Origin: Phoronis australis
Lineage: Eukaryota; Animalia; Phoronida
Direction: 5' to 3'
NCBI GenBank assembly: GCA_002633005.1
Contig: NMRA01000167.1
Coordinates: forward strand, 364,460 to 428,459
DNA: 64,000 bases
Shown: one piece after another, positions 7,794-59,659 of the stretch
How the letters are laid out: each line of letters opens with the position of its first letter
Numbering within the stretch: position 1 is the stretch's first letter
Program-made: the position numbers and the translations under genes
The notes under the pieces: model-generated
What the model saw: the letters and a program-made list of their open reading frames with translations, nothing else
Database searches by the model: none
What the model was told of the DNA's origin: nothing

Positions 7794-8023
7794 ATGCCAC
7801 ACTGTTGCTGCGTACCAGGATGTACTAATTATCGGCTCACGCGCGCTTTGGGAGTACCTTTGCATCGCTTTCCGACGGATGACACACTTTGCCGTACTTG
7901 GCTCGTTCGTGTGAAGAACGCAGCGTTACCCGTCCACGCAACGTACAAAGCAGTGGAGAATTACCGTGTGTGTGGCAAGCACTTTCTGCCGTCCGATTAC
8001 GAAAGGGATTTGTACGCTGAACT
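7794..8023 (+). CDS. THAP zinc-finger N-terminus (transposon-encoded; runs into the gap)
   Basis: MPHCCCVPGCTN...LHRFP....W.....RVCGKHF..DY matches the C2CH THAP signature. Confidence 0.85.
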
Positions 8024-17133: not shown

Positions 17134-17458
17134 CTGTTTTGCAGCAGGAATCTGCGCCACGGAGCGAACATGTACTTGTATCCACAATGTGGTGCTGGAG
17201 ACCCCTTTCATCTCCATTTGCGGTTGTTCTATGTCAAGGTTTCTATTATTCGTCGCAGTCAGGAGGAATCCATGATGGTCAACCATGAAGTCACCATGAA
17301 CTTCCAAGACATGAACTCGACTTCCATATTGGGGGACTTGTATTTTAACAAAGTCCATGAACTTGAAGCCACATTTAAAGAGAAAGCAAAGAGTGCACAC
17401 CTTAATATATCGGGTAATGTGACCACAATGGACAACATGGACCTGGTCGCTATCGCTG
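17134..17458 (+). CDS. Candidate exon, SEA-domain-like (acceptor uncertain: 17133, 17144 or 17147)
   Basis: Open frame ...FYVKVSIIRRSQEESMMVNHEVTMNF...LVAIAG resembles the SEA core (beta strand, GSVVV-like site). Phase-1 donor GCT G|gtacag is compatible with the next exon. Confidence 0.45.
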
Positions 17459-20400: not shown

Positions 20401-23400
20401 AACTGTTTAGTTGGGCTTTTTCTGTGAATTCTCTATGGAATATGGGAGGTGTAAATCTTTTGTCTATGTTCTGTGGTAACATAAAAAGGCGTATGGTACT
20501 TTTAATTACCTCTGCAATTCCTTACTGAAGACTTGAGACTCATTTACTTAACGTGGTCGTTTTGTATGAGCTACAGGGAAGTAGGCAAACTTCCATCATA
20601 AAATTGGCAGGAAGGATGAGACACCCAGACTATTCATTTTAGACAGGACCGATTTGTCTCATTTCGCCCATGCGCAAACTTAAAAAAAAACGTATGAACG
20701 CACCGTTTATCTGACTTTGGTCACACATTCCCGCGATAGGAAAGTATTACCTTCACCAACTCAAATCACAAGCAATGCGTAGAGCTTACAGAATCGTATC
20801 CAAAGAACAATGGAAAAATAGTACATGTAGCTGTTTTCGAGTAGCAAGTTTTATCGTGACACATGTGTGCGTAATATCTGCCGTCCAGTTTACCTGGCAT
20901 TTAAGTGCACGTTACACGACCATGTACAGTACATCCTATTATGTATTGGAGGAACCATTGCTTTGTTTAAGTAATTCAAAGTATGAGCTATGTTTTTGTT
21001 CAACCTTATGAACTTCAAAGACATTGCTTTTTTCCTGCCTAAATACACGATTGAGGTGAGTTGTTGAGCGAGATGTCCCATTTGTTTCATGAGTGTTGGA
21101 CATTAGTTGGATAGTATAGTTTTGTTTTATTTATAGTTCTGACGACGTGAACTCGAAAGCTGCAGTACGCCCTAGACTGATAATTCATCCAAAACTCTCT
21201 AATTACCAATTCCGAGCCTACAGTGAATAAAAATACTCAAAACTCCAGATAGGTTTTGAAACATACCAATTCCCTTTAATATGAAGCTTAAGCGTTTTAT
21301 TCAATGACTGGGGTCCAGGGGCTTTAACTTAACATATACAACTTTTTACCAGTGGTATTGTTAAATAGTTCACAGCAAGGTGTGAACTAATCAAGGTGAC
21401 CTATACATTGGTGCGGTGAACGTTTTAGTCAAATATTGCAGGATGGACGTTGTGGAGCAGTTGGAGCAAGTGTGTTCCAATATCTGGGTGTGGACACGGT
21501 AACAGAACGAGGACCAGACGATACTGCATGGAGTCGTGCTGGGATCCAGACTTAATATTGGATTTTGAAACATCTTATGAAGGATGTTTTCGCCCATGCA
21601 GTAAGTTAAGACAACGCGTTTAACTAATCATCGGTGCAATTCGCTACATTTGCCTTCGAAATATGTTGCGGTTCTGCCACCTCCCAATTATGTGACTACG
21701 TTGTCTGACAACGTGCAGTCAATAGAATTTACGACCTGCCCGTGGAGTTCAATCTCGTCATGAACTATTTGAAGCGAAGTGAAACTCCTTGAAATTTTAC
21801 ACGCCGAGTTAATATTAGAAGCTGACAATCCAGGTTGATAAAATCAATTGTAAAACAAAAATCGTAGGTGTTGTTTTTGATCGTGCTTATTCAAAATCAA
21901 TTAAGCCAACCTTGTATAAACCTTTTGCAAGAATTATTTTGCAACTTGGTTAATGTCTAATCTTTGATAGAATTTATCGTACTATTATTGCGCCTGTCAG
22001 CTAATGATCCATTTGCGTAATGGAGCTCCTCTGTTAGTTAACGCAATTTCGACTAAGACGACTTGAAACCTGGTGTAGGGGCCTAGACGTCCGACAAATG
22101 CACGATAACGTTATGAGAGCAACTTATGCTAAAGCGTGTTGTTCTTGCTACTCACTACAACAGGTGGACCAACACAGCTCACGTTGTTCGAAAACGGAAA
22201 AGTAGTTGGCAATAGTCTGGCCGTCCTGCCAGAATACCTGTTGAAGTTGGAGTGCAAAACGGATAACGTTCAGCCCGCAGTGAGGTTTACGTGGAATCTC
22301 TCGAGGGGAGACAACTCGTCTGTTCAATCCTCTCGTCCTGCTAACAACACCAGTACTTTGACTGTCCGTGTTAGAAAACAGCACAACGAGGTTGACGTAG
22401 TGTGTTTGGCAAGAAATACGGGGAGCGGGAAGGAACTGAATAAATCTGTAACTCTCATCGTCATGTGTAAGTATAGCTCTACATCATTTTTGGCAGAGTT
22501 ATGGTGCTATGCCTACTTTGAAAAATTGATCTCCGTAACCTATGTGGAAAAGACACTTTACTGGTCAAATGTCTGTGATTTCAGTTGGTCCGACTGTAAT
22601 GGAGTTATTGGTGAACAATGGACAGTGTGATCCCCAAACTTCCAAGTGCCAAGTCAATGTCGGGTCTTCTTCAGTTGTCACTTGCAAGACAGACGACGTG
22701 AGCCCTGATGTAAATATAACGTGGCTGGTGCTCACACCTGACAAGTGCATGGACAGAAATAAAACTTCACTGTTTTCTAACTATTCCGAAGAAAAATCTC
22801 TTGGACTTTATCGAGGGTCGGCCACTCTGGTGCGCAAGGTCGTGTTTGTTGCTCACCAGGAGAACGATGGCTGCAAGGGACGCTGTAAGGGAGAAAATAC
22901 GTTATCAGGGCGTGAAGTGCACATGAATTTGACATTGGATGTGATTTGTAAGTTACTGCTTCTTTGTACACACAGAAATTTATGCCAATAACTTTGTTCT
23001 TTGAGACGTATATGTAACGATGACAGAACCTGCATATTGAATCCAAAATCAAGGTGCAGATACCCAACGTAAAATTGCTGATATCACTCCAACTACTGCA
23101 TTGATGATACGGCGTCTAGCATGCTACGTTTTGTTTTACAAAATACCACATTGAATGCTTTAGCGTCAGCAATTATTTTCTTTCACTTTGCTCTGACATC
23201 ATTATCACTAAAAGCTGCATTATGATTAATTTCACAAACATAATTAATTCAAGCTGAAATCGCCAATTAAGTAAGCGTGGATATTTTCAATGTATCGCTC
23301 TAGATAGTTTGAACCTCCGTGATGATCGCTGCTGGAATTTGCTCAGTGGTATGTTCCTGCTGGGTGGATCAGAAGTAACACTTGCCTAGCACCATACACA

Positions 23401-26400
23401 AACTTGTCTGACCATAGCTAGGTCAACGTTACTAGACCTGCTACCCATCGCTGAATGGGAACGAGCATTTATAAGAAGACAGACCTAGAAATTTGTCGGG
23501 TGGAACCCAACATGAACCTAGCAAACTGTTCGATTCACATTGCTAATTTTAGGAGTCTGGTAAAAGGCTGGTCAGTGTAGCAATAGTGTGGAAATTCATT
23601 GAAAAAAGTTAAAATACCCTTGGTAGCCCACAATAGATATTCTTGATTATAGATTCAAAACATTTGCAGTGAATACTCAAAAGTCACATGTCAGCTGATC
23701 TGCCGTGCGTCGTTTCAACTAAGTCTTACACTGTATTAGAAAAAAACGGTTAAACTGTGGACGTTCATGTACGTTTTCAAACAGACTTGATACCTCGGCA
23801 ATTTTGAAAAACCTACAGTTCCTGTTCAACCTTGGCTCTTGAATAATGAACAGTACCACATCTAACGGTGCAAGTATTAATAGGCCAACAAAAGATCACC
23901 ATCAGGAAAGTCGCTTACAGGTCATGGAGAAGTACTTTAAAGAGTCATTAGGGAGCGCCTTGGTTACATAAATGACTCAAAGGCTGACAATTTGCTTCTC
24001 TAGACTGAACGATATATAAGACTGGGTGTAAAAATATTCTTGACGTCCAGACACGGCCACGGGGTGCTCGTAAAAATTAATCAGTGAAAGTGAGGGGTTT
24101 GCAAATCGCTGGATTATCAAGAGCCGTACCCCAAGAATTTTGCTTAATGTTTCCATTATGAAGATAAAATAACAAAATGAAAAGGAAGCTGATGAAATTA
24201 GGCATTATTCAATAAATATAACACTAATTAAAACTCCGTCTAGCGGACAACCTGAAATACGGCGTGTGAATTGCAACACTAGAGAGCACGGTTTCTGTGA
24301 TTTTGTGCAATTCTAGAGTTTTTTTTACGGAAATCGTACAATTGCCATTTCGTTACATGTCATACAAAAGTGAAGCATTGCACCGAAACTGCCTAACATC
24401 GTTGTGGAGAACGGTGTATAAAGCGTAGTGTCTGAAAGTTTCATGTGAATTTTAGCATTTTTGGGATTCAATTTTCCGAAATCATTCCACTTTTGGAGAT
24501 GTTCTAGGGTCGGCATACGTGCATCCTTGACTTCAACTATGTCGACTACAGTCACAACATTCATGAATTAACTGTGTTTGTACCGGTATTGAACATTTAA
24601 GTTATTGTTGAACACGTTACTCTTATCGAACAAGAAACGCTGTCTCTTGGCACTCAGATGGGCCAGACGACTCTGCAAAACTCATGCTCACTGGTGTGGC
24701 TGAAGCCGCTGAGCACGCCGTGGTGGAAGGAGAACCTGTGAACGTCACGTGCAGCACGCGGAAATGCAACCCCAGCTGTAACATTTCGTATTTCTGGCAT
24801 CGACCTGGTCAGGAGTATTACTCCAGTTTGACAACTAAGAAGCTGGAATTTGTGGCTGATAAGATAGATCACAATCAGACTTTAACGTGCGTGATAACAA
24901 ACTCCAGGAACAAACATTTCCGAAAGAATTTGAAAGCAGCTATTTCTGTCTTGTGTAAGTTCCTTTTCCATGTTCGTTTAATCCTACAAACTCGATAATG
25001 AAGAAGTTCTTACACCGGCGCATATTTAAGCAGACAAGAATGCACTAAGTGTCTCCTTTTTGTGACACCAGCGCGTAACGCGCTTTTTGCGTGTCAACTG
25101 TTTTGGCCAACATTGTCAGTGGGTGTTGAGTTGTAGGATCATATTTCGTAAGTGCTTTCATAAGACAATTTATTATTTTCTTCGCTGACAAAATGAATTA
25201 TTTATATTCATTACTTAAAAGTTTGCACATTTTCAGCAAAAACGGAATTTGTGTTCATCCATTTTTCTAACTACGCTTTGCAGTTGGCCCTAGCTCGGTG
25301 TCTATAGAAGGCGTGCTCGTGAAGAATGGCACAGCGATAATAAGCAGAGGTCAGAAGACGGCGTTGACCTGCAAGTCGGACGATGCTTACAAACAAGTAG
25401 AAATACGCTGGTTGACTACTATACCTGGCCAGAGTATAAACACCTCAGCTGTTGTTGGTGGATACACTTTCACTAGCAGCTTCAGCTTTTCTCCAAGTAT
25501 CTCTGATGATCAGAAGACGATTACTTGTCTCGGACAGAACAGAAACAGTCGAATTACTGCAGCAACAGAAGGACCCATAGTAATACGAGTTGCAGGTACA
25601 ACTGATTTTTAAAAATGCCATTTCGGCCTTTTACAATTTAAGTGATCATTTCTGCTTTTTGTACATGTAACCTTTTCTATTTCCGTTTCTCTGTAAATGT
25701 CTCTTTGTCATACCATTTTCAAGATTCACGAAATGTCGATTTTGACGACATCAGGGCAATAGGTGAGTCGACAGGTGGACATGACGGACTTGCCAGCTCT
25801 CAACTTTGTTCCCATGTTTTGAGTTAAATTTAACCATTAATGTAATTGTTGATCTTGAAGACGGACCTTATCAAGAAAATATCACCTTACGTGTTGACGG
25901 AAAGGTCATCGAGGGCGGCAGAGTTACTCTGACGTGTCTGACACCTGGCTGCTACCCGGCGTGCTTCTTTCGGTTGACAGGTCGCTCGTTTAGCAATACG
26001 TCTGCTACATCACACCTCCAATTTACACAGAGTTTCGTAGCTTCCCGAGATGACCACATGCGAGTCATTCGTTGTACTGCCAGTAACAAACTTTTACCCA
26101 ACAGGACAGCAACCGCCCAAGTGAAACTGAACGTTAGTTGTGAGTTTAAGTTTTTACTAAGTTGATTATAGCTTTACTTCCAAATAACCTGACGTGCAGT
26201 ACATGTAAGTGCATTGTTGACAACACATCAAGTTATTCTTTTCTGAGACGCTTAAAGTGCTAACTGTTGTCGCATCGATGTCACGTGATGTCACAGATGT
26301 TTACTATTAAGTATACGTGTCTCATGTTATACGTTATCTAAATCTGATTGAAGTTTGATTAACAAATTTCCCAAAAAACACCGCGGAGAATCCGTTAACT

Positions 26401-29400
26401 GATCTAATTCGTAAATACAGACGAAGAATATGTCAGTTGTTCGGATTTTTTTTCGTAGCTGACCTCAGTCAAGAGGGTCACTGTTTTCCATCTTGATGAT
26501 CGTTTTTGAATTCCTTTGACACCGGATTTTTCCATTCAATGGCCGCGAGTATTCTTCCAAGGTATCCTCACTCCGTCTTCGTACGACAAATCTGACATTG
26601 AAGCACAATCAGTTGCGACAGTCATGTTTGCATGAGGGCTTTATTACATCGTGTAAGAAAAACAGCATTAAAATCTAAACGGTCACTCGATGTGATACTT
26701 AAAAATATACCAAACCAAGTTTTTGCCTATTAACAGACACAAAAATTGACTTTCCCATCTACATGTAATTTTCTGAAAATTATGCTCCATAACCTACGAT
26801 GGTCCTAAAAATGTTGGAGAATCGTTAAGCGAGCAAGCGTAACCCATGCTTTATACGATTTACCCAACAATTTTAGGGAAAGACGAACCCCCGCAGAGCC
26901 GCAAAATCCAACTTGTGAATCAGAGAGTATGAATTTTTGCTTTATTTTTGCCTTCAATATTCAAGTGGGACGCCAGTGATGCATTCGCAGGTGATGTACA
27001 GAACGAGGATTGGTTGAAGTCAACGAAACAAGGCTCAGTATTCTTTCACTAATCAACTTGTAAATAGGCTACAATCACAACACTCACAAACGGTGCATAC
27101 TTTGCACGTAGACAACGTCACCGTCTGTACTCACCAGTTGAGACAGTGGTGCTCACATAGGGCCTTCATACGCCGGAGGTTTTTCAGCGAATTACATCTC
27201 ATACTGATAACCATCGAAGTCACGTTGGAACCTTTTGAATATAAAATGACACCAAGTACTGCCGTAGACAAAAACCTTTTTCGAACAGTTCTTTATTTGT
27301 TCAGTTTCCCTAAACGGCAACTGGTCATTCATACACTGCGCACGCCAGGAAATATGACGTCATATCATGGAAAAGTACTTAAACCATTGTGACTTTGATC
27401 GTTTACTTACTATGACTGAGAAACAATTTGCCGAAAAGCTTCAAGTGTATGAAGGACCTAAAGAAGACATGTTTGTATCCATTAGCAATGTTGCGTAAAT
27501 CGGGAAACCAATTCATCGTTTAATAAAGTAAAATGCGGCAAAAAAGTAGTCAAATTTTTTCAAAAAGTCACTTGATTTCTCGAAATGTCGACAACCATTA
27601 TGGCCATGATGGCCAAAACCCACCTACCGACTCATTACATGTAAGTATAGAAATAACTGCAAAAATATTGAGTTTTATCCCATGGGCGTTGAATCAGTCG
27701 AGTGCAATACAGCCATGTGATATTGTTTTCCGTATTCACCTCCCGCACTGCTTCAACAGTGACCTCTGACAGGGAAAGTTCAAAAGGTAGGTCAATGTCG
27801 ACTGGGAAGCCGTCAGTCGGTTCAATCATCAAACTTACCCAAAATAGTTTAATCTAATACACTTACTGTAGTGTAAATAACACTCAACACGCAATCAGGT
27901 CCCAGATGTAACATCTGATACAAAACTGTGAATTGTGTGACTTTTCTGTCTCAGTTTTCAGTTAGAAAATATTATACCGTTTGCAACTCAGGCGCTTATT
28001 CCCCGGTTACAACAAAATCAAATACTGTTACTATTTTACTGTTATTATTTAACTATTTTCAGAAAACGTTACAAATTCAGTGCACAATTGCCGTTCTTTT
28101 CATCTTCGTTATCTCTTTTCAAGCAATAAATCGTTACATTAAAACTTGTTTCTTTTACTTGAGAAAGCTTGTAACCTAACGCGCAAGTACATACAAAAAG
28201 GTAAAGAGAGTTATCCCGCACGTGAACAGTATTAGTGAAGTATTTTAAAAAATCTGCCGAAAAATAAAAGAAACTCGCGAATTCGAAGTGTATAGGATAA
28301 ATAAAAAACGTGCCTCGATTGGCGTAGATGAAGTAACATCCCATTTGGAACTACATGTATTCTGCGGAAAAATGTCTCGTGGAATATTACTTCATCTATG
28401 GCACTCTCGGTACGTTTTACGTATACACTGTACTTACTTGTACATGAACACCAACCCTTGGCCTATTTACATCAGTAGGTATTCTTTCACGATTGGCCGC
28501 GCTATTAGGTAGACGAGCACGATAGTGGGGAATACTAACGGAGATCAGTGATTATATTTTGGTTTACCCTGGTGCAAGGTGCGTAATAAGCAAATGTCAA
28601 AACATAACGCTGACGTGCAGGTCGGACTATTATTACAAACTCGTAGAAAAGCGCTTGTTTAGTACGACATCTGCCTCCCGTTCTGCAACGCTAGGACCTC
28701 GCTAAACAGCAAGACTTCGCGAGATTACGTGAGATGTTGTCGTGTATTTCAAATGAGATCACGTGACTTTGGCTAGACTTTAGATAGGTTCTAGCGTAGG
28801 TGTAAACGCCTCGGCGGTAGTTGGGGGAAACACAATCACTACCAGCTTCAGCTTTTCACGCAGTTTCTCTAATGATCTGAGGACGATTGGTCTTGTCTCG
28901 AGCACGGAACAGGGACAGTCGAATTGGTACAGTGATAGAAAGACCTACAACAATACGCGTTGCAGGCAGAACATAGTTTTAAGTTTATGTTACACAAGGC
29001 TTCAATGCATGGCCAAGCCTTCATTCCTGTTTTCGATAACATTTTCTATTTCCTTTCCTCTCAAATTGTCCCTTTGTCAAATTGCACTGGATGGGATTCA
29101 TGAAGTGTCGTCGATTTCCACGACATAATGGGAGTTCTTGGTGAGCTGGCTTGAGGAATATACCTTCTCGGCAGCTCTTGACTATGTCGGTGTTTTTAAT
29201 GAGATTTAACCATTGAAGTAATTGTTTATCTCGAAGACGGACCTGATCAAGAAAACATTACTGTACTTGTTGACGGAAAGGCAACCGAGGGCGGCAGAAT
29301 GACTCTGACGTGTCTGACACCCGTCTGCTACCCGGCGTGTTTCTTTGAGTGGACAGGTCGCCCGTTCAGCAAGTCGTCCGCTGCCTCGCACCTCCAGTCT

Positions 29401-44400: not shown

Positions 44401-47400
44401 TACGTGTATATATTCAAGATAAATCACAAAACACTGTCTTTGCAATTGGTGTTTCGTTTTCTTTGTATCCAACTTGCCTTTTTTAATAAAACTCATGTAA
44501 ATCCTACTTTTGAAGGCCCTTCATGCAACAGCGGGAAATTTTAAAAATATATATAATAGTAAATTAGAAAACACTGAATAAAATATAGTGAGTGAAAGTT
44601 TCACGTGTATTTGTCCAGTAATTTCTGAGATACGATGTTCCGAAATTGGCTAAACTTGGACATATCCATTACTGTGACGAAAAGCAGGAGGTGTTTACAT
44701 CATGTTCGTTGTCAGAACTGATAAGAAATACAGGTTCTTGTTCCTATGACAGGGGGTCCAAAGACCGTGACGCTGCAGGGTATAGACGGTGTTAGTCGAG
44801 TTCAGGGAGGCGAGTACGTAGTAAACAACGGCTCGATCTCCGTATTGCAGTGTATGGCCAAAGGATATCCGTCAATTGCCATGGAGTTCGTGGCAGGAAA
44901 TACGAAGTCGAGAGATGAGAGAAGGCACACAAGTACAGGTGGCGTAGTTGAGGTTACACAGACGATGACCATAGTGCGTACGTTCGCTTCGGATCAGCAG
45001 GAGAAGTTCAACTGTAGAGCTGTGAACACTCGTGACAACAGAATAAGAGCTAATGCAACGATCAAGCTTAAAGTTGTGGGTAAGTCAACGGCCTAACGCG
45101 ACACTTTTGTTCAAGAATATGTTAGAAATATGCAATTTGCACCTTTTGCGCTAAACTGAGTGGAATACCAGAAAAAAGCAATGACCATAAAAGTGATAAT
45201 TTGAAGTAATTTGATTTCGTGACCTAGTGAAGGGCTTGAAAAAGTTAGAGATGGTCGAACTGAACGCATTATAAAAATGAGACAGTCTCGTCCCCTCTGG
45301 CGTACCAAAGGGGGTAGGAGAGGTTTGTGTTTTTGCCACCTTTCTGATCTAATTTTCAGGGACTTCTCCCAAGTTCACCCCCCGTAGAGCTCAACTTTTA
45401 CCACCTTTGCACCTGAAGTACACGTATATTATTTTTTGACCACCTGTCCATTCTTTGGTTCAATGATTGGAATACATGAAACCTGTGGAACACGCAGCCA
45501 ACTCTCGTTATGACATTTTCAGGATCTTACTAATCTTCATGCCGTTGAATTTAGACCGCTCAATGTTCTGACCATATTTTTGCAGTTGATTTATACTATA
45601 TCGATTCGACCGAACAAAGGGTCTTAGTTACCGCAATACTCCATCCAAATGCTAAGCATGGGTTGAAAGCGTCGCTGAACATGAAACAGAAATGCTCTTA
45701 CAACCCCGGTACGTCTGCATGGAGATGAAATACAGACCTGTTATTGTACATTTCACGTAGACTTCTACGCTAATCGTGAGTGCATAAAGAAACAAATGGA
45801 GAACTTGCCGGAACTGAAAGGTGTTCAAGACGAAAAGAAATTGACATTTAGTCTCAGTAGTGTGCGTCGAAGATTTGACGAACCTCGAAGCTCTCCAGGG
45901 AAATGTTTCATGACAGTGACTTAAGATTTGACACAGAAATTTTTAATTTTGTTCCTGCTTCACAATCGTTACTAGAACAAGGTTTAACCAGGTAAATAAA
46001 AACTAACTACATTCTAAAAACACTTTATATAGAAATCATCTCAATAATTAGCTGCTATTGTGCGTGTACATTACCTGAGACTGCCCTTTTACCTAAGTGA
46101 TATTTATATATTTTTATGAAATATTCATGTGGAGTGTAAGACCAAATTCCAAAAATTTCTGTTATAAGCCCACACCTTTAAGTACATGTAAGAGCAAACC
46201 TGGTATTAGGATGAAAAACGTGTAGCTGCGGTAAGTAACAGGACGTTCTAGTGGCTTGAAGAACTTTAGCGATCAAACTGTTTTGGAGAAGCCTGGACTT
46301 GTCGGCATATAACCTCCAGCATGAGCACTGCAATGACAAGTTGCAAAGCTCCTTGAAAGCGCCTGCGTCGAAGAGACAGATACATGTACTACAAGAGAGG
46401 ACAAATACATGTACTAGGCATTCATTCATAACATCTTTCTTAAGCTGCTACTGTTGCTTATTTCACAAGAATGACACACATAGCTGAGGCTTCTGATTTT
46501 TTTGAAAACTTTCGGCAGTCTTGTCAGCCTTCGCGGATGAACGTGGTTCTCCAAGTGAAAGAAACAAAGGCTCTCTGTTGTTGCAAAGTTGCTGCAAGCT
46601 GTCGTCGTAGGTGTTTCACAGTTGCTCTGCCATATGTTATGTCCACACGCTGGCACTCCGTGCTGTTTGATTGATTTTCTCCAGGGTCGCTATCCTAGAG
46701 ATGAATAAGTAAGCACCAGGTTTGACTGGTATAGAGATGTCTGACAAGAATCGGGAGATGATGCAACGACCCTGTGAAGTTAGTGTTGATCATGATCCCT
46801 TTGTTACCAATCAGCTGCCGAAGAGATATAAAGAGAGTGAGGGAGGGAGATGAGAGAGAGGCAGCCATGGGATGCACGAGTAACCGATACATTGAAGTCT
46901 GGTGATAATATTATGATGGGGGCTCCTCACGACCGAGAATTTTATCTTCAGCAGGTGGGTATCGCAAGTTAATCTCAGGTCCTGATGACTGCTATCTCTG
47001 GCAAGGAATAATGCGAGAAGTTAGTGGCGACGCATGTACCTTTGCTCTGCAGGTCTGATGGATTTGTTCTTAGCTGTTGGAATGCCGTGTTTGGATGGAA
47101 TGGTAGAATGGAACAGTATATAGACATTGGTTCCACTGTCAAACTTTTGGGGCTTAATGGCGTCTGACTGCTCTCCATGCATGCGCGCAGTCACCGGTTG
47201 TCACGCAAGTTCATTTCTATAAGGGAAAGAACAGAGCAGTGTTGTAAAGATCGAGGTTGTCTGACGTGAGGGTAGCGTGGTTATGGCACACGACTTGTCT
47301 GACACCGTATAACCTCTCATCTTCCCCCAGTGCCTTAGGTCACTTTTAACATCACATACGTCAACATGGGATCAACAAATGAACAGCCCTGAAGTCTCAT

Positions 47401-50400
47401 TATTGCTTAGAACATCTGCCAGCATGCTATGGCGTGCCTTTAGATTCCACATCCATATCCTATTGTAGAAACAACTGGGTACAAAGACCCACCTCATAAG
47501 TCAAACACATCGCTGGAGATATTCAAGATAATGTCTCTTTTCCACTGAGTGCTCATTTTGACCCAGTTCCACCTAAACTGAGTGTTATGATCTATTGTCA
47601 AGGTACAGCACTGGGTAAGAAGTTCGTCGCTGATTCGTGTGGCTGTCACAAATAGCTTCTTTCATGCACGACATACTGCAGTTACTCTGATGGAGAGGGC
47701 TGCTGCAATAAACACACCGACGGACGGGCTGCTTGGATTGATGATGACATGGACCAAGAGCATAATTTGGGCGGAATCATTTACAATGAACGATGCACAA
47801 TACTAGCAGGAAGAAGGCACTGTTGAGGGACATATTTTGTTGTACTGTATTACCGAGATGGTGATTTGACTTACGATCCATAAACAGATCAAAGAGTAGA
47901 ACCCACAACAACACTTATTGCTTTGGATCGTTTATGATATCCGAAAAGGCCTTATGACTGAACATATGTCGTCGGCTGATCGAAAACACAAGACCTTTTT
48001 GTAACAAATTATCTATCAAACGCTGGGGTCCTGCCTAAGGCTTGGTTACAATCTTCGTTCATTGAAAGATTTAATGTGTTTTTTAATTAAATCAAATTGT
48101 GGCCATTGTAATATTAAAAACCGGACGATTGCCGCACAAATGAAAAATATCCGCCTGCATTATGGCCCTCAAATATTAAAGCTGATTCGCAATGTTCAGA
48201 AGTCTCTCTGCCGACCAGGCGACTGCATTGTGACATTGATTTCGTCATCAAATGCCAACGACTCCATCTGATCCCCACTTTCTCCATGTTGAAGCCAGCT
48301 AATGCCAGAAGTTTGTCACAACATGATTTCAAGAGACTACAAGAAAAGTTGCTTTCCACTGAGTTGAGTAACAATAGGAAAAGTAAAATAAAGTTGCTTG
48401 AGGAGTACAGCAATCTGTCACGTGAATTACGTTCATCTGTTGTATTCCTGATTTGGATTTCCATTGAGCAGTTACTGAAAACCTCTTGCAAAGCAGTGAC
48501 AGAAAACAGGAAAGTTCGGCATGCTAGTAAGAACGTCAGTCTTAAACGCAATTATGGCTACAAGGTTGTCGTCAATTTGTCTAGTACTCCAATTAGTGAT
48601 GCTGAAAGAGCACTCTTTAGCAAAGGGTTAACCTTCGGTATCCCCAATCAACACATCAATGCCATGCCATTGGGCACTAAATTATTCTAAAACAACACCA
48701 CTTCTACCCTAATCCCTGACAAAATGAGGTTATAACATCGCCTTCGGGAACTGTGTTATCGCTACACCTATGCATGTAGATATAACAGTAAACAACTTCA
48801 GAATGTCACACGGGATAAGTACCAGGGTTTGTATTTTCTGTCACAACGTCAAGACATCACCATCGCGCGTCCTGGCAAAGGCAACAGTATTGTGATCATA
48901 GAAAAGATTGACTGCCTCTCTGAGTTCCATGACATCGTTAATGACAGTTCTAAATTCGTCAAGCTCGATCATGACCCGACAGCTAAACGCGAACAACATC
49001 TACAGAACTGTTTATATAATCTTAAACGGACAGGTGCATTGGACCTGGACACTTACAATGGTATAAGACCATGCCGGTCAAAGCCAGCACTTCTGTACGG
49101 CCTCCCTAAGACACGCATGGATGGTGTACCGCTGCGACCTATTGTATCCTGTGTCGGAAATTACACTCATGAGCTTGACAAATTCTTAGTTAAAATTCTC
49201 AAACTTATTAGTGAGAATGACGCACTTAAAGATTCTTTTCAGTTTGTTAATGAAGTCCGGGCACTTAATAATAATAATGATAATGATAATAATCATTTAT
49301 CGTACATCCTAGGCTTTGCCTACTCATACATAAATACATAAATTCAAACGTATATTCAGAATATTTACACGGAGAGCAGTTCTTCTCTTAAAGCCATAGC
49401 CTTCTGAATATACAATGCGAGGCGCTGGATGCCGTTATGATTTTTCTGTTGGAATGAACTAACAAGAGGATAGTTAGCATTCACAAGCTCTGGTAGAGGA
49501 TTTCTTCTTAGGTCTCCAAGAACAGAGCATCGACACAAGAAATGAGACTCATCTTCAATTTCACCCAGACAGCATATTCCGCATTTTCTCTCACGTCTTT
49601 GAATACCCATATGCGTCCTTTTCTCTATGTTAACTAAGTGACCTGAACATCGAAATTGCGCGTAAACAATTCACATATTGCTTGCTAACAAGATCACATT
49701 TAATTAGACCATAAAATTCATGTTTACATGTATTTGACCTACCTATTTCCAGTTACCATACCTGTACGCCACATTCCAATAATCTCTGTTTGAATACAAT
49801 AATAAAACCAGCGCTATTGCCTGGGCCAAACAACCACACTTCTGCCTAGCCGTACTTATACAACATTTCTTTGACACTGTGTGCCCAGTTACAATTACCA
49901 TTTTCACCTTGTTCCCTAAGCATACTATAACACTTCAGTGGGTACCCATGTTTTTCCATATCGACTGCAGTAATTTTGTCCGATAGATAATTGGTTTATT
50001 TTGTAATTAACAATTGTCTCCCACATTCACCACGAACCATAGCATTTGGTGTTTTAATACTCAATCAGTATGAACTTTTCAATAGATTCACACATTGATG
50101 TGCATAAAATAAACGAGAAATATCTACACTATCAAATGCCTGACCACTCCAATTCAGTAATATGATTATTATCAGGCTTTGTAGTGTATACAGGCTCTGA
50201 CAAGCTTTGTTTTATAATATTCCAAACTCTATTAGGATTCCTCACTGACTCACAAAGCTCACCTTGTTTATCGTTATAGTATCACCTTCTCGTCATTTTA
50301 CATAACTTTTTGTATTCATTTCTACTAGCAAGATAATTTCTCTGGTCTAATTCACTCCGAGACACCCTAAATTTTCGCAGTAGACGCTTCTTTTGTAGTT

Positions 50401-53400
50401 TCCTCTCTTTGCACTCACTGTCAAACCATGCGGGTCTACGTGGTTTTCTTACACACCTGTTTTGCCTCACGAACATGCCCGCTCGACATGACTGGAGCAA
50501 GTCCACTAAGCCTTTAACACTCTCATTTTTGTCAAAGTCAACACAGCTTATAATTTCTCGACAATTAACTTTTGGTTCCTGGCTTTGTAATTTTCCTAAA
50601 AATACACCTGCTTTCTCATTATGCCATCTATATCTTACTCGTTCTTGCAATACTATAGAAGGTCCAACAGTGTCTTTCTGACATAATTTTGCAGGGGTAC
50701 TGGGGGTAAAAATTAAAGGAAAATGCAACGATAAATCACATTGCAATACTTTAAAATCTTGAATGTACTCGAACAACGATATCTCGGCAAGAACATAATC
50801 AATGGTGCTACAACCTCTCGTCGAAACAAAAGTAAAATTGCCATCAGGATCATATTTCAATCTACCATTAACAATGTGGATACCATGACCCATACACAAA
50901 TCAATTAAAGTTTTACCAAAATTATTAGTTTTGTAATCTTGGTTTTTCCTTGGTTTGGCAAAATCCTCCTCTACACAGACACAGCTATCTTCTACATGTA
51001 TAACACGGACACTTAATGATGCACCATTTATGGGTAGTCTAGATGTTTGCAGCCTCTTCACTAATGTACCTGTAGGTGAAGTCATTGAATTGTGTCTTAG
51101 CAAGGTGTATACTGATAGTGACGAGGTCCATAAATTGACTCGTGACCAATTTCGTAAGTTACTCACAATCGCAGTTAAACAGAACCATTCTCTGTTTGAT
51201 GATAACTTTTACGATCAGATTGACGGAGTGGCCATGGCTTCACCCCTGGGACCAGTGGTAGCTAATATTTTCATGTACAATCTCGAGACTGAGGCTCTGG
51301 CTAGTTGTATACCGATTGTAAACCGCAATTTTATCGTAGGTATGTGGACGATACGCTTGTTGTGTTTTCATCCAAGAACTCAGTCATTACCTTTTTCAAT
51401 CACATCAACAATACACATCCATCCATCAACTTCACCGGTGAATCTGAGCAGCAGTCGTGTTTATCGTTTCTAGATTTATTGATTAAACGTGAGAATAGCA
51501 CCGTTGTTACATCTATGTATCGTAAACCTAGTTTTTCTGGGCTTTACTTTAAATTTGATGGTTTTGTGCCGATCCAATACAAGAGGGGACAAGTTAGTTG
51601 CTTGTTACACCGTGCCTAGAGAATTTATCCCACCAATTTAAATTTTGATAGTGACGTAGGTAGGATTTTCCATTTATTGTGTACATGTACCAGTGGTTAC
51701 TCTCTGAATTTTTCGAATATCTGTAAAAGGCACTTCCTTTCAAAAATTAATGAGGCAGATAAGGTAGCTGTTATTGGACCTGAGGAAAAGAAAGTTTGAT
51801 TTTATCTTGGTTACACCGTGCCAAGTAGTATAAAATTGAAACGTCAATTATCTCGCCTTACTCATTGCATAGACCCAGCCGTTGTTTTCAAAACTCTTTC
51901 CAATATGCTTTGTAAACTGAAGTCACCCATCCCTTTGTTGAACAAGAGCAATGTTGTTTATCCGGTTGAATGTGACAACTGCAAGGAATTCTATATCGGA
52001 CTCACACAGAGACGCCTCTGTGGCAGGCTGAAAGGACATCACATCTCTGAGAAAAGAAACATTTATAGGCATTGTGTAAGAAACAATCATCAAACCTGTT
52101 CTGTTGTGTTATCTGCAGAGAAGCTAAAAAGGAACTACTATACATTAAAGAGTCATCTGCCATTCAGAACCAGCATGCTACTGATTATTTGAATAACATG
52201 CAGAGCTCAGTTGCCCTGCAACTATGGTGATGACCAGCTACTGAATAGATTACCTGTATCTCTCACTTCACTTCATAGATGTCATCTGAGCTTTATGTTT
52301 GGAACTTGCTGTCCTTTATAAATATCCTTATGGTATCTCATGAATAGACGGAACGTTGATTTAACATGAACTTTTTCATTTGTGCGGCGATCCTCCGGTT
52401 TTTAGTGTCTTTTTGTAAGCCAAAATGGGTCACATCGAATAAAAAATAGATGTTGATGTGGAATGTTACCCTGAACCAATAACCAATTACAATTTGCTGT
52501 CACCTTGTGTTGTTCAAATCATTTGAAAGCACTCTGTGACTTCACGTGAGCTTTAAAATGTTTGTCAAAACACGGCCGCTTACAACACTTAAAAATCCAC
52601 TGGCTAGAATTCATTGTCATTGCAAAATATGAAATCCCCGTATAACGGTTCAAGAAGCTTTTTTTTTAAATGAAAACCTAAACAAACGACATCATGATCA
52701 CCCGTTTGTGTATTTTTCAGTTGACGGCAACTGGGCAGCGTGGAAGGAATGGGGAGACTGTTCATCGACATGCGGAAATGGTTGGCGCGAAAGCATTCGC
52801 ACGTGCTCCAACCCGCCACCTTCTTCCAATGGAGGTAGATTCTGCCCTGGACACAATTCGCTTTTTGGCGTTTGCACTGGAAACTTCCCGTGTGACTACT
52901 ACAAGAGAGGTTTGTCAAGCTTTAATAGGCCTGTTTATTGTCTGGTAAAGGACTTTTTCAATTGCAGATAAATCGGTGAAGGAAAATGCACACCATGTGA
53001 TTTATACATGTGCATGTAAATACTTGTACATGTACACTGTCAACCTTCGCTGTGTTCTTTCACCTAGAAGCAGGTACATGTAGCTGTTTAAACTGCCATT
53101 CCCCGACAACATAAGTTAACATATATATATTTATTAAACGTCTGAAAGGGCAACGTTTTATCATCACGTTAGCACCATTAAGAAAATGTCAGTTCTTTCT
53201 GAAAAACCGGTGTAAATTCAAATTCATGCCGCTTTGAGTTTCAAATTTGTTCTGGAAGTTCTTACACAGCGAAGCGAGTCTTGCATCTTTGTGTGAAACC
53301 GCGGTGATATCAGACATCAGTGACGCGTCTTAACACAACGTCCCAATTCATCATCTTGTTGATTGCTTATATATTTGTTGAGAGGTCAATAAATTTGTGA

Positions 53401-56400
53401 CTGTTTCCTTGGCGATAGACTGAAGTGGAGTAAAATGCTCACGCCTCAACCCGTATGCTGAAGAAAAGCTGTTGTTTAGATCTCCCAAAAGGTACCAAAA
53501 CCGAACGGCCAATAACGGTTTTCTAAGACGTTCATTTACAAGACCCATTTAGCTCACCAACTGGGAACATGAAATAGTTAATTTATCTGAAGAAATGGTT
53601 TGAGTTCTAGTGATAAATATCGATTATTAAAATGCATTTCATGAATATGGAATTTCTGAAAAGAATATTCCACAAAGGTTGACCATCACTTAAGGGGATT
53701 CCGGTGTAAACAACTTAACGTTTTTAACCTCTTTTAGTCGTATTGAAAGACTTTGAACCATTAAAACGGTGGAACTTTATTAGTTAGACCACATCCTCTG
53801 TTTAAGCCAATCCTATTTGGTGTGCCTCGGGCTACAGACATTAGGTCGCAAGTTCTTGTACTGAGATTTCTTAGTTCACAGTGTAGATACGCTGGATGTA
53901 TCCACAACAAAACGTTTTTCAGCGGCTTTTGTTTGGTACACATGTGAATGTAGATTTTGGCCTGATAATGTTTTAGGAACCCAATTCTAAACAAATTTAC
54001 CATAGTACATGTACACGCAAATTTACATTTACTCCACCTGGAGACTGCACACCAACAGTGAGACATGGCCTCTAACGTTGTGCATGCCGCCATGTACATG
54101 TATAGTGTACACGGAATGGCTCTACTTTCCCGTATTTCACGGCATATACTTAACGACGTTTTGAATGCCCGTATTTACACATATAAGGGCGAGAGCGTCT
54201 CATTTTAAAATTTTCCTGGTTATTGTTCAGCGTTTATTTCTCAGCCGTTGTTCGTGGATTGTGATTAAACAAGCGTATAATTTGCAAGATGGAAAAAAGG
54301 CTTAAAAGAAGGTTTGGAAGGTTTTAAAGACATGTGCATACGCAATAGAAAATTTTTAAAGGATTTTCTTTCAAACTCATGGGACCTAGTGAGTATGAGA
54401 ACAAAGACTGGGGTCTGCTGTAATTAGGAGTCATTATCGCATTCTTGAGTACGATTAGGTTATGCGCAGTGTTTGTGAGAGGATTTGGTTAACCGTGCTT
54501 AACTAAGCCACAGTTGATTTTCAAGGGACAATTTTAGGAGCGTTCCCCCAGGTCATTGGGGAAAAACGATTTCATTGACGCACTGTCACGCCTTAACTTG
54601 GGACAACGAACCATTAAAAGTAGAAGTGAAAAATGAGAAAATTTATAAGGCCCATATAGCCGTCAAAGTGACCAATAGACTTTGTGGGTCAATTCACTCA
54701 AACCTAAGTTTTTCTAAAACGATTCTTTTTGTCTTTTTGAAAAGCGAAGTAATTTTTGTTGGTGTTTTACAGCTTATGGATATCTCTGGTCTTGGGTGAA
54801 GGATCCTGTAGCTGTAAAAAAAGTGTCGATCTTTGCCGCCTTGACAGCCATCTTTTCCGGCTTAGTACTTTATTCGTGGTACATGCGCACCGTTCACATT
54901 CGGGAGACCAAAGACTTGATAAACCAAGACAGGCACGACTTTGACGCCTTTGTAAGAAAACTAGCTGCCTACCTACAAGGAAACGAGGAAACATCTGAAA
55001 TAGAAAGCAAAGACGACGAATGTCCATGGGAAAAAAGCCGCAGCGTTGTGAGACAAAAGTTAAAAGAGCTTAAAGGTACAACGGGCACTAATGAAACGCC
55101 AAACGTTGCCCTGAAATCTTTCCTACAATCGTGTATGATGAAGCGCAAGAACGGTGGTCAATCAATGGACAGTGAAAATGCAAACACTGTGAAACAGAAG
55201 CACAAGCTGCAGTTGAATGCATTTGGATCGCGCATAAGTTTGCTGAAGTCGCAAAGCTGTAGCAAATTGATGAACCGTGACGGCTTGGACAATGAGCTTG
55301 CTTATCGAAAACAAGAGTTCGAGAATAGACTTGGCTCGTGCATGAATTTGTTGTGGCGAAAGAGCAATCCTGGGTTGGTGGACAGAGACTGTTTGAACAA
55401 GGCGTTTGCTAACTTGAAGCACGAGTTCCTGAAGACTAAGGTCGTCCAAGCAAACAAGACGTCGTGTTTTAATACTATCAGAACTGCCCTGAATGGTTAC
55501 AATCTCTTTGTACATGCGAACGAGCAATATGAAATAGTCGCAGACAAAGCGCTGGTGCGTGACACCCAGCGACATTTACTTGCACTTGCCTTGAAGTCAC
55601 AGTACCAGGATGCGTTAAATGCAGAAGATGACGAATCGATGCAGTGGATTGCGCGTGTGGTCGAAGCAAACGGTCTCCAAACCTTTATTGACGTTGACCT
55701 CAAAGTGGGGTACGAAACGCGAAAGTCGCAACAATTTTTTCAACAACTGAGCCTGGCAATCTTCAAAATGAATAGAAAGCACCTCCACGATTTAAAACGA
55801 CTGACACAACCTTCAGCAGAACTGCATGACACCCTTGCTGCAACACTCATCGTGCTTGGTGAACGAGAGGAGGACACACGTGACTGGAGATTTTGCCAAA
55901 CTATGTGTCATGATTCAAACACGTTATACAACAAGGGCCTGTTTTGGCGCATACACCGTTTCAAGGTAGATGAGGTATCCTATCACGAAGCGTCAAGAGT
56001 TCTGGAAATGTTAAACAAACATAACATTCAAACGGTGATGGAAAAGAGCTCTTTGGCCGGAAGACTCCACCAATGGGCACATGCGGCGGCATGTCAAAGG
56101 CTGAACACCACGGAAAGGCGGATGTCTTTGCCATCAAGAACGTGTGATGAGCATGGCCAACAACATATAAGAGATTCTGAAAAATCAGTACAAAAAGCTG
56201 TTTCACACGATACTACTACGGATTTTACTGCTCGACATCACTTTTCAGTAACAACTGTATCTTCAAGACTGAAACAGAGAACAAGTCCCTGGAGGAAGAC
56301 TTCCGCAGAAATCCCCAGGCACATGACTAGATATACAGTGCGTTCACACTCACTAAGACCACATGAGTCAGCCACCTCTTTCTCAACAAAGCATCGCAAA

Positions 56401-56676
56401 GTTGCTCCACAGCCACAACTTTTGCACGGTCGCGACCTAGCTTCGCGAAAAAGTATCTCTGATACCGCATCACCGCCAAAAGGAACAAGCTTGGCAGCTT
56501 CAGCAAACCCTGGCCAGGAGACACATGTACACCCTAGCATTCTTCAGCAGGCAAACACGCCTATAGCGGCCAAAACGTTGGAGAAAGAGTGCAAAGGAAA
56601 CGAGTCACCTGAATCGAGTAGTGTGGAGAACAAGAAATTGGAGAAACATCACAAAGATATTGTCAGCGAAGACTAG
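17134..56676 (+). CDS. Multi-exon type-I membrane receptor (SEA-like? - TSP1 - 13x Ig-like - TSP1 - TM - cytoplasmic tail with dynein-MTBD-like domain); 5' end not identified
   Basis: 18 exons with AG/GT boundaries splice in one frame. Internal exons are all phase 1-1 (159, 303, 363, 297, 312, 279x4, 324, 138, 177, 336, 336, 327, 189 nt). Summed CDS is 6606 nt from 17134 to the TAG at 56676 if all exons are included. Confidence 0.8.
18636..18888. mobile_element. Short MITE-like element
   Basis: Imperfect TIRs catgcacgcacccag ... ctgggtacgctcatg. A similar right end occurs at ~6800-6834. Confidence 0.5.
21442..21600 (+). CDS. Exon: thrombospondin type-1 repeat (absent from the ORF track)
   Basis: attgcag|GA TGG ... 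TGC A|gtaagt. Translates to GWTLWSSWSKCVPISGCGHGNRTRTRRYC...GCFRPC (WxxWxxW, CxxG, RxRxR motifs). Confidence 0.85.
22164..22466 (+). CDS. Exon: Ig-like domain 1
   Basis: cag|GT GGA CCA ... ATG T|gtaagt. Ig pattern LKLECKTD..P....W....HNEVDVVCLARN. Confidence 0.9.
22585..22947 (+). CDS. Exon: Ig-like domain 2
   Basis: ttcag|TT GGT CCG ... ATT T|gtaagt. VTCKTDDVSPDVNITW...NDGCKGRCKGEN. Confidence 0.9.
24658..24954 (+). CDS. Exon: Ig-like domain 3
   Basis: ctcag|AT GGG CCA ... TTG T|gtaagt. VEGEPVNVTCSTRKCNPSCNISYFW...HNQTLTCVITN. Confidence 0.9.
25284..25595 (+). CDS. Exon: Ig-like domain 4
   Basis: tttgcag|TT GGC CCT ... GCA G|gtacaa. LTCKSD....W...DDQKTITCLGQN. Confidence 0.88.
25861..26139 (+). 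CDS. Exon: repeated Ig-like domain, copy a
   Basis: cttgaag|AC GGA CCT ... AGT T|gtgagt; 279 nt; LTCLTPGCYPAC...DDHMRVIRCTASN. Confidence 0.85.
28580..28965 (+). pseudogene. Decayed partial copy of the Ig-4 exon, interrupted by a ~125 bp MITE
   Basis: Aligns by eye to about 25335-25595. It has indels, lacks the 5' acceptor, and the donor is changed from gt to gc (tgcag|gcaga). Confidence 0.75.
28676..28800. mobile_element. ~130-bp MITE family, copy 1
   Basis: Core agcaagacttcgcgagattac is shared with 40071-40191 and 43478-43606. Confidence 0.65.
29237..29515 (+). CDS. Exon: repeated Ig-like domain, copy b
   Basis: ctcgaag|AC GGA CCT ... AGT T|gtgagt; 279 nt; open frame. Confidence 0.85.
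30038..30690 (+). repeat. Diverged ~125-bp direct repeat pair (30038-30165, 30569-30690)
   Basis: cttagaaatcca(c/t)gattagtc...atcaaaaatgggcat...gatattcat...tataaccaaa occurs in both. Confidence 0.7.
32195..32410 (+). pseudogene. Second decayed partial copy of the Ig-4 exon
   Basis: ggccagagtataaacacc...gatgatctgaagacgattacttgtctcggacag matches the Ig-4 exon. It carries deletions and has no donor. Confidence 0.75.
32672..32950 (+). CDS. Exon: repeated Ig-like domain, copy c
   Basis: cccgaag|AC GGA CCT ... AGT T|gtgagt; 279 nt; open frame. Confidence 0.85.
33128..33406 (+). CDS. Exon: repeated Ig-like domain, copy d
   Basis: cttgaag|AC GGA CCT ... AGT T|gtgagt; 279 nt; open frame. Confidence 0.85.
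33905..34840 (+). mobile_element. Degenerate CR1/L2-type LINE fragment (APE endonuclease plus RT remnants)
   Basis: MGDLNART, NNFGNALIDMC, SLVDFLL and SDHLPI (endonuclease); LLYADD (RT). Many stops and deletions. Confidence 0.8.
35262..35585 (+). CDS. Exon: Ig-like domain 9
   Basis: tttgcag|AT GGG CCA ... TCA G|gttgga. VSIACRTDEVNP...HHASRVVCTANN. Confidence 0.85.
36310..36745. mobile_element. Old MITE-like inverted repeat
   Basis: ctacttttgtgcgaactcaa (~36395) is the reverse complement of ttgagttcgcacaaaagtag (~36643). Outer arms are imperfect. Confidence 0.55.
37301..37438 (+). CDS. Exon: N-terminal half of Ig-like domain 10 (absent from the ORF track)
   Basis: ttttcag|TT GGA CCA GCA ... 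TTG G|gtaagt. GPANVYFHQAGGFMKDNTVFAWPGHVVSLKCSTDFIRPDASMYFL. Confidence 0.8.
39144..39320 (+). CDS. Exon: C-terminal half of Ig-like domain 10 (absent from the ORF track)
   Basis: cattaag|GC CAG ... ATT G|gtaaga. ...EIEVKLSIKESERGQEITCKAFNSRDNDLAAIGKVSIDVI supplies the second Cys and the G strand. Confidence 0.8.
40071..40191. mobile_element. ~130-bp MITE family, copy 2
   Basis: Same core as the copies at 28676 and 43478. Confidence 0.6.
41120..41455 (+). CDS. Exon: Ig-like domain 11
   Basis: tttcag|TT GGT CCC ... TCT T|gtaagt. LHLNCITDKVLP...HDKSELTCEARN. Confidence 0.88.
41651..42108 (+). mobile_element. Kolobok-like THAP element, left end (truncated at an N)
   Basis: ttaa|aggtgaaggcaacc; near-identical to 7528-7986; THAP ORF from 41916. 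Confidence 0.85.
42258..42593 (+). CDS. Exon: Ig-like domain 12
   Basis: tgtacag|TT CTC ATA AAA GGT CCA ... ACA G|gtactg. ISIVCLS...GVITCIAKN. Confidence 0.82.
43230..43426 (-). pseudogene. Possible THAP remnant
   Basis: MTKRCIVSDCDNS....VALFTMP resembles a THAP N-terminus. The rest is degenerate. Confidence 0.35.
43478..43606. mobile_element. ~130-bp MITE family, copy 3 (best-preserved TIRs)
   Basis: cgttcagtaacgctaggacct ... aggtcctagcgtctactgaacg. Confidence 0.7.
44753..45079 (+). CDS. Exon: Ig-like domain 13
   Basis: tgacag|GG GGT CCA ... GTG G|gtaagt. VLQCMAKGYP...QQEKFNCRAVN. Confidence 0.88.
48100..52230 (+). mobile_element. Degenerate Penelope-like retroelement (RT plus GIY-YIG endonuclease)
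   Basis: VVNLSS..ISDAE..LFSKGLTF, YGLPKT....PLRPIVS, SLDVCSLFTNVP, GVAMASPLGPVVANIFM, RYVDD, SFLD, VVY..ECDNC.EFYIGLT.R.L..R. Confidence 0.88.
49270..51005 (-). mobile_element. CR1/L2-type LINE fragment inserted in the Penelope-like element
   Basis: Minus-strand endonuclease motifs (NNFGKTLIDLC, IVNGR, GCSTIDY, AWFDSEC) and C-terminal CGICCLGEIEDESHFLCRC. (ATT/ATC)n tail at 49270-49294. Flanking repeat cgg(g/a)cacttaat. Confidence 0.8.
52721..52909 (+). CDS. Exon: thrombospondin type-1 repeat
   Basis: ttttcag|TT GAC GGC ... AGA G|gtttgt. VDGNWAAWKEWGDCSSTCGNGWRESIRTCSNPPPSSNGGRFCPG is a canonical TSP1. Confidence 0.92.
54773..56676 (+). CDS. Terminal exon: transmembrane helix plus long cytoplasmic tail
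   Basis: Phase-1 acceptor gttttacag|CT TAT GGA is in frame with the 626-aa ORF. Hydrophobic VSIFAALTAIFSGLVLYSWYM at 54823-54885, then a helical/coiled region, an MTBD-like segment at about 55747-56094, and a low-complexity S/T/H-rich end. Confidence 0.85.
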
Positions 56677-57800
56677 ACATCATTACGTACTACGAAAGGC
56701 ACAAAGAATTCTGACTATTCAAGTCATGTGGCCACAGCTAACCAATTCTCTGCCCAGTGTATGAAAGTAAACATGAGTCATGTTAAAAATCTTCCCTCGT
56801 CGAACTTTGAAATCAGATGAACAAGATACACGTATCAGAATTTTATAAAACTGAATAAGTATACATGTGAGCCACCACGAGGTGAAAGCATGCCTACGAA
56901 ACATAAAAAAAAAACAATATCAACACCAAAACTCCTAAATATTCGACAGATTGCATACTTCAATCTAAATTGAGCCGTTTCGATACCTGGCACAAAATGT
57001 GACGCATTTCAATTTTCCAGGCATTGAAGATCTGAGAGCAAAAAGAAATCCAGCGGGATAATGAATGGGGTAAATCTAAAAATTACACATAACATCTGAC
57101 CATAACAAAGCGAGATTCAGAAAACGGTACCCTAGAGTCAAGACTTAATTAGCATTTCCGCCTGGTGTAGATATTTGACATCAGGTTCTCGATTCTCCAA
57201 TCAATAATGAGATCTAACGGTTTACAAAAATTATTGGAGCACACTTCGCATAATATAATAAAATAAGTTCACACGACAGTAGCGTTCCAGGCTGAACATT
57301 GGTTTGGTTACAGAACTATTGCAAGTTACTCAAAAAGGGGAACAGAATTCAATTCAAATCACGCACTAGTATAAACTTTTGTCTAAGAAATGAGAAAATA
57401 ATGGCATCTGATTTTTGAACAAGTGCCTTTTCGTTTTAGATAGCTGAATGTGATTATCTACATTGTACAGCTGTACACCATACTAGTTTCGTTTAGTGGG
57501 AAAAAGACGCAAACGGATACGTGACCAAAAATAGGTGAAAGTCAAACCATTCAATACATCGTGGCGAATACCATACTCAAGTAGACACCATTATCAGTGA
57601 AAATCCGTAGCTTAGTACATCCCTGCGATGGGTAGCCTCTGTGGCGATGTAGTGTGACCAGTGCTGTAGAGGACACAGAAGCGTAATGCCCGGAGACAAT
57701 AAGCTGCCGGCGTTTTTTAATCGCCCTTGGGATGTGTCCTGGGGGCCCTTCGGTCCCCCTTTATCCGCCTATGGCATGACACCGTAATTGTTACTTTATC

Positions 57801-59655: not shown

Positions 59656-59659
59656 TTAA

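Follow-up and report, generated by a model that had tools for sequence, protein, structure and literature searches.

Can an animal adhesion receptor carry, on its own cytoplasmic tail, a domain of the kind with which dynein grips microtubules? Adhesion receptors normally reach microtubules via adaptors. The question is raised by a gene of Phoronis australis in a 64,000-nucleotide window of contig NMRA01000167.1 (positions 364,460 to 428,459, forward strand; the window is the whole stretch of DNA analysed), which is about 40% GC, rich in introns and of animal type. Plus-strand exons between 17134 and 56676 are modelled as one giant surface receptor with a thrombospondin type 1 (TSP1) domain, 13 immunoglobulin (Ig) domains, a second TSP1 domain, a transmembrane (TM) helix and a 633-residue tail, part of which has the predicted fold of the dynein microtubule-binding domain (MTBD). 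The boldest reading considered here, with a probability of about 40%, is that a motor-free dynein-type MTBD was recruited as the cytoplasmic effector of this Ig/TSP1 adhesion receptor and gives it an adaptor-free grip on microtubules. The protein would then represent, in transmembrane form, a family of tethers between membrane and microtubules that has been overlooked so far and whose members, in invertebrates and other eukaryotes, are often anchored by lipid. If true, a receptor with its own dynein-type domain would be a new design of membrane-microtubule coupling, and a natural test of how an MTBD behaves without ATP-driven stalk sliding.

A transcript joining the ectodomain to the tail

The reading frame of the tail, 54718–56676, is open for 652 codons and, as the original prediction held, has no ATG start: its first methionine is tail residue 37, C-terminal to the hydrophobic segment. 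The donor at 52909 (AGA G/gtttgt) and the acceptor at 54773 (gttttacag/CT) are present in the sequence and both in phase 1; the protein across their joint reads ...CDYYKR-A-YGYLWSW. RNA data mapped to 41310–61300 comprise three same-species raw RNA-Seq runs of a single study (X1–X3), about one fifth of each, and one contig set (X4). The reads of X1–X3 derive from a haplotype other than that of the window, since they differ from it at many fixed sites.

The in-frame joint 52909>54773, which had been predicted from the splice phases and proposed for checking against RNA reads, skips 1,863 nucleotides with GT..AG borders and is crossed in X1, and again in X2, by 23 reads with 17 different starting positions. 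A lack of such reads would have refuted the original prediction, which passes this check. The splice of the TSP1 exon onto the TM/tail exon is real and expressed. Three further GT..AG joints lie upstream, 41455>42258 (13 reads in X1, 5 in X2), 42593>44753 (15 and 5) and 45079>52721 (22 and 31). The first mates of all four joints are on the minus strand, which by the usual library convention indicates plus-strand RNA, and the tail exon is covered at a depth of 21–30 on one strand in X1 and X2. X3 and X4 contain no read across 52909>54773 and none across the other three joints; therefore, expression differs between samples, the gene being expressed in two of the three RNA-Seq samples (X1 and X2, not X3).

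The reads chain five exons. Ig exon 11 (41120–41455) has a read-supported donor, whereas Ig exon 12 (42258–42593), Ig exon 13 (44753–45079; Pfam Ig_3, E 2e-4) and the membrane-proximal TSP1 exon (52721–52909; Pfam TSP_1, E 2.8e-9) are supported at both ends, and the last coding exon (54773–56676) at its acceptor. Ig domains and the TM segment, a hydropathy prediction, thus occur in one transcript, as in type I receptors of the immunoglobulin superfamily (IgSF). A minor acceptor within Ig exon 13, at 44851, is joined to 42593 by 3 reads in each of X1 and X2, against 15 and 5 for 44753. This joint shifts the frame and meets a stop 22 codons later, and might lead to RNA decay or to a secreted, soluble truncated ectodomain.

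The TM helix is predicted at tail residues 17–37 (54823–54885) by the Kyte-Doolittle scale, and residues 17–35 form the most hydrophobic 19-mer of the entire model (1.79; next best 1.62). In a 2,189-residue version of the protein, 36 N-glycosylation sequons and 57 cysteines precede the TM exon, and the last 600 residues hold 4 sequons. The protein is accordingly predicted as a single-pass type I surface receptor with a cytoplasmic tail.

A non-motor module with a predicted dynein-like fold

The central part of the tail, residues 213–441, was modelled by AlphaFold2 with a pLDDT of 89.7 and a pTM of 0.71. An unbiased structure search of 48,161 chains returned dynein stalk or MTBD chains in all top five rows (Z 16.9–12.5), the best match being Z 16.9 to 3err and 5ayh, with a root-mean-square deviation (rmsd) of 3.4 over 148 residues; 3err was also the top Foldseek match (E 8e-4). 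The model has the six-helix MTBD at the tip of the two stalk helices, CC1 and CC2, and this region is thus predicted to fold like a dynein stalk tip with its MTBD, in line with the dynein-like domain of the original prediction. When the window domain was combined with 17 relatives into a sequence profile, 58 PDB sequences matched (best E 1.8e-11), every one of them, judged by its name or length, a dynein heavy chain or part of one. The module falls into a helical bundle (residues 213–320; 55411–55734), drawn from the family profile and the helical model, and the stalk-tip/MTBD-like domain itself (residues 321–441; 55735–56097). The latter is followed by a Ser/Thr-rich basic stretch (56110–56673; 24% Ser+Thr, 30 K+R against 21 D+E) that is likely disordered.

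Several non-dynein structures match the fold. Those at ranks 6, 7 and 9 of the unbiased search all come from microtubule assemblies. The chains 9ya2_L, 9fqr_Xl and 9e5c_2e, within microtubule assemblies, match at Z 8.5–11.6, a range flagged as uncertain for helical folds; their identities are at most inferred and, unlike the predicted Phoronis receptor, they are not surface receptors. The first, a chain of a Toxoplasma intraconoidal microtubule model (Z 10.5, rmsd 3.0, 125 aligned), is probably ICMAP2, because its 162 modelled residues fit the resolved domain of that protein, although the title of entry 9YA2 and the list in the paper disagree on which microtubule is concerned. ICMAP2 binds the microtubule surface, and its resolved domain, one tenth of its 1,678 residues, binds between protofilaments (PMC12819142). 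Radial-spoke chains also resemble the fold, namely 7jrj_I (Z 7.7, rmsd 1.5, 74 aligned) and, by Foldseek, 7jtk_C. The "MTBD-like" motif of TTLL11 was considered separately and set aside as unrelated to dynein (PMC12366701).

The sequence relatives of the tail are not motors. Searched exhaustively, 1.84 billion representatives yielded 34 remote matches (E 4e-9 to 9e-4), all at tail residues ~211–451. Twelve of them are KY/hillarin-like, with a KY Ig-like domain and the match near the C-terminus, and one has leucine-rich repeats (LRRs). PF12777, the dynein MTBD family, is touched in six of the 34 and is above cut-off in one, and the extracellular Ig and TSP1 families of Pfam are found in none. 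Four of ten relatives looked up have names, from Ridgeia, Apostichopus and Pecten, and all are uncharacterised or mis-named. Eight of the 34 begin with Met-Gly, presumably a myristoylation motif, and the N-termini of several relatives look lipid-anchored. The three segments among them that come close to the window's TM helix in hydrophobicity all lie within soluble domains. Built from 31 relatives, without the window and without P0002, P0008 and P0024 (long inserts or a duplicated domain), a profile scores tail residues 213–441 at 126.6 bits over positions 20–237 of 244, a support that is partly circular, as the window was the query that first retrieved the members. In the ESM Atlas, the module leads to mollusc clusters that all score below 0.9 (top 0.87; PF12777 in 14% of members), and tail residues 1–215 give no lead.

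By sequence, the tail module belongs, as a divergent copy, to a non-motor module that is scattered over proteins of invertebrates and other eukaryotes and combines a helical bundle with the MTBD fold; it is not a piece of a dynein gene. With dynein MTBDs (PF12777; 3err, 5ayh, 6rzb) it shares the predicted fold, short CC1-/CC2-like helices and a conserved P, LG, W, W pattern. In contrast, it is 18% identical to them, gives no PF12777 match, lacks the long stalk and lies behind a predicted TM helix; Pfam finds no AAA family in the tail, which ends 190 residues past the domain; the AAA+ ring and long coiled-coil stalk of a heavy chain are absent. With the non-motor relatives (KY/hillarin-like, LRR-bearing or stand-alone; Ridgeia, Pecten, Apostichopus) it aligns over nearly the whole module, but the window copy is receptor-borne and divergent, whereas the relatives have no extracellular Ig or TSP1 families of Pfam. 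The KY/hillarin combination of a transglutaminase-like core with KY Ig-like domains is also foreign to this locus, neither family being found among 17 window ORFs (open reading frames) scanned. The donor of the module was most likely a member of the non-motor family rather than dynein directly, because the upstream helices align with that family and the direct match to dynein is marginal. This module at the C-terminus of KY/hillarin-like and other proteins is seemingly unnamed, and a binding result would assign it its first function, in 34 mostly unnamed proteins.

Selection on the module can be read from a neighbouring duplicate. A tandem duplication at 60050–63430 repeats the tail exon together with its 3' flank, with repeat DNA in place of the acceptor. 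The exon copy (60050–61900, plus strand) is 87% identical to the intact exon, lacks the acceptor and the first 14 codons and is frameshifted, with indels of -1, +3, +4 and -1; its unique bin, 60653–61300, has a depth of 0 in four of four runs. Between the intact and the broken copy, dN/dS is 0.31 in the helical bundle and 0.32 in the MTBD-like part, against 0.65 and 0.54 in the flanks. Within the module 31 of 58 changes are nonsynonymous (p 0.0004 against neutrality, with an assumed site share of 0.745). The module is under purifying selection at a dN/dS of ~0.3, as judged from these sequences, and the contrast with the flanks is no more than suggestive.

Microtubule contacts and the proposed tether

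The contact positions bear on whether such a fold would hold a microtubule. In mouse dynein, K3299, E3304 and R3306 are presumed contact positions on helix H1. K3298 (H1) and R3382 (H6), on which the mouse numbering was anchored, are proposed tubulin contacts of a strongly positive interface (PMC4987762). The window has N, R, D and K at K3298, K3299, E3304 and R3306, so that the charge character of H1 is conservative at the last three (K3299 to R, E3304 to D, R3306 to K). The family keeps E3304 in 31 of 31 members and R3306 as R or K in 25 of 31. This pattern is compatible with, short of showing, a weak, avidity-dependent binding to microtubules.

A number of results count against the favoured reading of the protein as a microtubule tether. 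The R3382 position is Glu in the window (with K adjacent) and K3298 is Asn; the window is the only one among 32 sequences without Glu at E3304; K3298, K3299 and R3382 are not conserved in the family, with R at R3382 in 3 of 31; and the MTBD-like domain is weakly basic (16 K+R against 14 D+E). No Pfam family matches the 633-residue tail. Its direct sequence match to dyneins reaches an E of just 0.08–0.6, weaker than a match to GDNF (E 0.007) that was put down to chance, the region being helical and cytoplasmic. The fold is alignment-dependent, as a single-sequence model of residues 1–452 has a pLDDT of 39.8, which leaves residues 41–212 with no assigned fold. At p 0.07, the difference in dN/dS between the module and its flanks falls short of significance. 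At the gene level, the signal peptide is at the candidate level, and 12 of the 16 model junctions, those upstream of 41120, are given by splice consensus and phase alone.

An orthologue was not found either, in the exhaustive search of 1.84 billion representatives, in word-index protein searches or in a metagenome scan. The word-index searches were blank for the tail, at near and longer length, and for the tail alignment, at longer length, and these blanks are weak, as the alignment search missed known relatives. Scanning of metagenome loci produced 38 pattern matches, none of them a relative, and the literature, in listings thin on subscription journals and supplements aside, held nothing relevant on the architecture or the module.

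The strongest competing explanation accepts the receptor and the MTBD fold, but takes the module as a signalling scaffold, for protein interaction or oligomerisation, that does not bind microtubules. It is a serious though rather doubtful possibility. The substitutions at R3382 and K3298, the near-neutral net charge and the variable contacts across the family speak for it, the fold also matches the radial-spoke chains 7jrj_I and 7jtk_C, and purifying selection shows that the fold matters and is silent on the binding partner. On the other side, the acidic/basic pair of H1 is kept in the family and conservatively in the window, and the non-dynein structures at ranks 6, 7 and 9 are all from microtubule assemblies.

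On the favoured reading, the receptor would act as a static tether that needs no ATP and ties a contact at the cell surface to microtubules, a tentative proposal that falls slightly short of even odds. Phase-1 exon shuffling is the likely route by which an Ig/TSP1 ectodomain acquired a member of the older non-motor module family. The rod of TSP1 and Ig domains would bind a ligand on another cell or in the matrix, and clustering of the receptors would present several weak MTBD-like domains to the microtubule lattice, with the basic C-terminal stretch helping contact. As there is no AAA ring, there would be no motor cycle, which would leave it to the helical bundle to fix the register of the stalk. 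Of the microtubule-coupling receptor with a dynein-like domain first proposed, the architecture and the predicted fold stand; the domain most likely comes from a non-motor module, and direct coupling is conjectural given Glu at R3382, Asn at K3298 and Asp at E3304.

The ectodomain and its surroundings

The complete model has 16 junctions, all in phase 1, and a stop-free frame of 2,092 residues, or 2,158–2,201 with a candidate exon at 17134–17458. The prediction that the scattered Ig frames form one protein of at least ~2,200 residues is supported by phase, by open frame and, at the four junctions from the 41120 exon to 54773, by reads; its remainder is as conjectural as the 12 upstream junctions. 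All 13 expected Ig domains are present between the TSP1 exons, 12 as single exons and one split in two, and most match Pfam Ig families, but below curated cut-offs.

The candidate upstream coding exon (17145–17458, with its acceptor at 17134, 17145, 17259 or 17263) has an open frame, a phase-1 donor that fits the first TSP1 exon and no Pfam match. Short hydrophobic ORFs ending at donors, 1904–1974 (ORF 1823–1974) and 13802–13904, are candidate signal-peptide exons, whose donor phases fit the 17145 and 21442 acceptors; phase is their support. The first TSP1-like exon (21442–21600; WTLWSSWSKC...RTRRYC) was placed by motif scan and splice consensus. It is followed on the plus strand by Ig exon 1 (22164–22466; Ig_3, E 2e-4; phase 1-1), Ig exon 2 (22585–22947; no Pfam match, tblastn likeness to Ig1 and Ig4; phase 1-1), Ig exon 3 (24658–24954; Ig_2, E 7e-5) and Ig exon 4 (25284–25595; C2-set_2, E 6e-10). 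Ig exons 5 to 8 (25861–26139, 29237–29515, 32672–32950 and 33128–33406), found by Pfam and tblastn, are four repeats 70–76% identical. Ig exon 9 (35262–35585) has a weak Pfam match and is similar to Ig5 and Ig6, and Ig10 is split over 37301–37438 (local Ig profile, E 2e-4; splice consensus) and 39144–39320 (E 7e-5; phase 1-1). The region 25284–33406 is an internal tandem duplication with the four intact exons Ig5–8 and two frameshifted copies of Ig4, near 28500–28960 (with a repeat inserted at 28669–28797) and at 32150–32400.

A shorter receptor, with at least three Ig domains, TSP1, TM helix and tail, is an unlikely alternative, in which the upstream Ig/TSP1 exons would belong to a separate gene or be skipped in part, or alternative use would be made of the four near-identical Ig exons. 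Read support does stop at the 41120 exon, within the mapped span, and Ig5–8 have weak gaag acceptors and adjoin the broken Ig4 copies. The exons, however, all share one strand and phase 1-1, have consensus donors and form a single open frame; no TM, stop or signal exon is seen among the upstream exons, and the pairwise dN/dS of Ig5–8 is 0.31–0.62. Slightly less probable still is that the module is a recently captured, decaying passenger of a protein whose work is done by the ectodomain, the TM helix and the disordered tail: the domain has diverged, lacks the invariant Glu, has no detected orthologue and sits in an unstable locus of duplicated and broken exons, but dN/dS is lowest in the module even though one copy compared is a pseudo-exon, and the 633-codon exon is intact and expressed.

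The domain order was predicted to lie outside named families, and no named family with it emerged from the searches run. UNC5 netrin receptors have two Ig domains, two TSP1 domains, a TM helix and a ZU5-UPA-death tail. The single-pass Ig and TSP1 layout is shared with them, and the TSP1 exon resembles UNC5B (E 1.5e-15) and likewise thrombospondin and properdin; in contrast, the window has 13 Ig domains between two single TSP1 domains, and a tail without ZU5, UPA or death domains by Pfam. Nephrin/Kirre, Dscam, L1 and hemicentin-type proteins share tandem C2/I-type Ig domains, here mostly one per phase-1 exon with weak C2-set_2 matches. They reach the cytoskeleton through adaptors and are not known to have a folded dynein-type domain of their own. 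Dscam-like proteins are marked by arrays of mutually exclusive Ig exons and by FnIII repeats; no FnIII or vWA/G2F/EGF domain was seen in the window ORFs scanned. Receptor kinases and phosphatases do not fit either, as the 633-residue tail has no kinase or protein tyrosine phosphatase domain by Pfam. In its architecture, the protein behaves as an IgSF receptor for adhesion or recognition would. The architecture is lineage-restricted; all its parts are of known kinds, and their combination was not found elsewhere in the searches made.

Repeats and the remains of mobile elements are scattered through the window. Three element copies (7524–8830, 41641–42108 and 59656–59820) are 95–98% identical and have an inverted-repeat end and an ORF starting MPHCCCVPGC..., which is presumably THAP-like; one of them adjoins Ig exon 12. 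Decayed retroelement remains, taken from their ORF translations to be reverse-transcriptase and endonuclease-like, lie in introns on both strands at 48100–52200 and 33900–34500. A tandem repeat of ~730 nucleotides, 84% identical and accompanied by an inverted partial copy, occupies 14198–16566.

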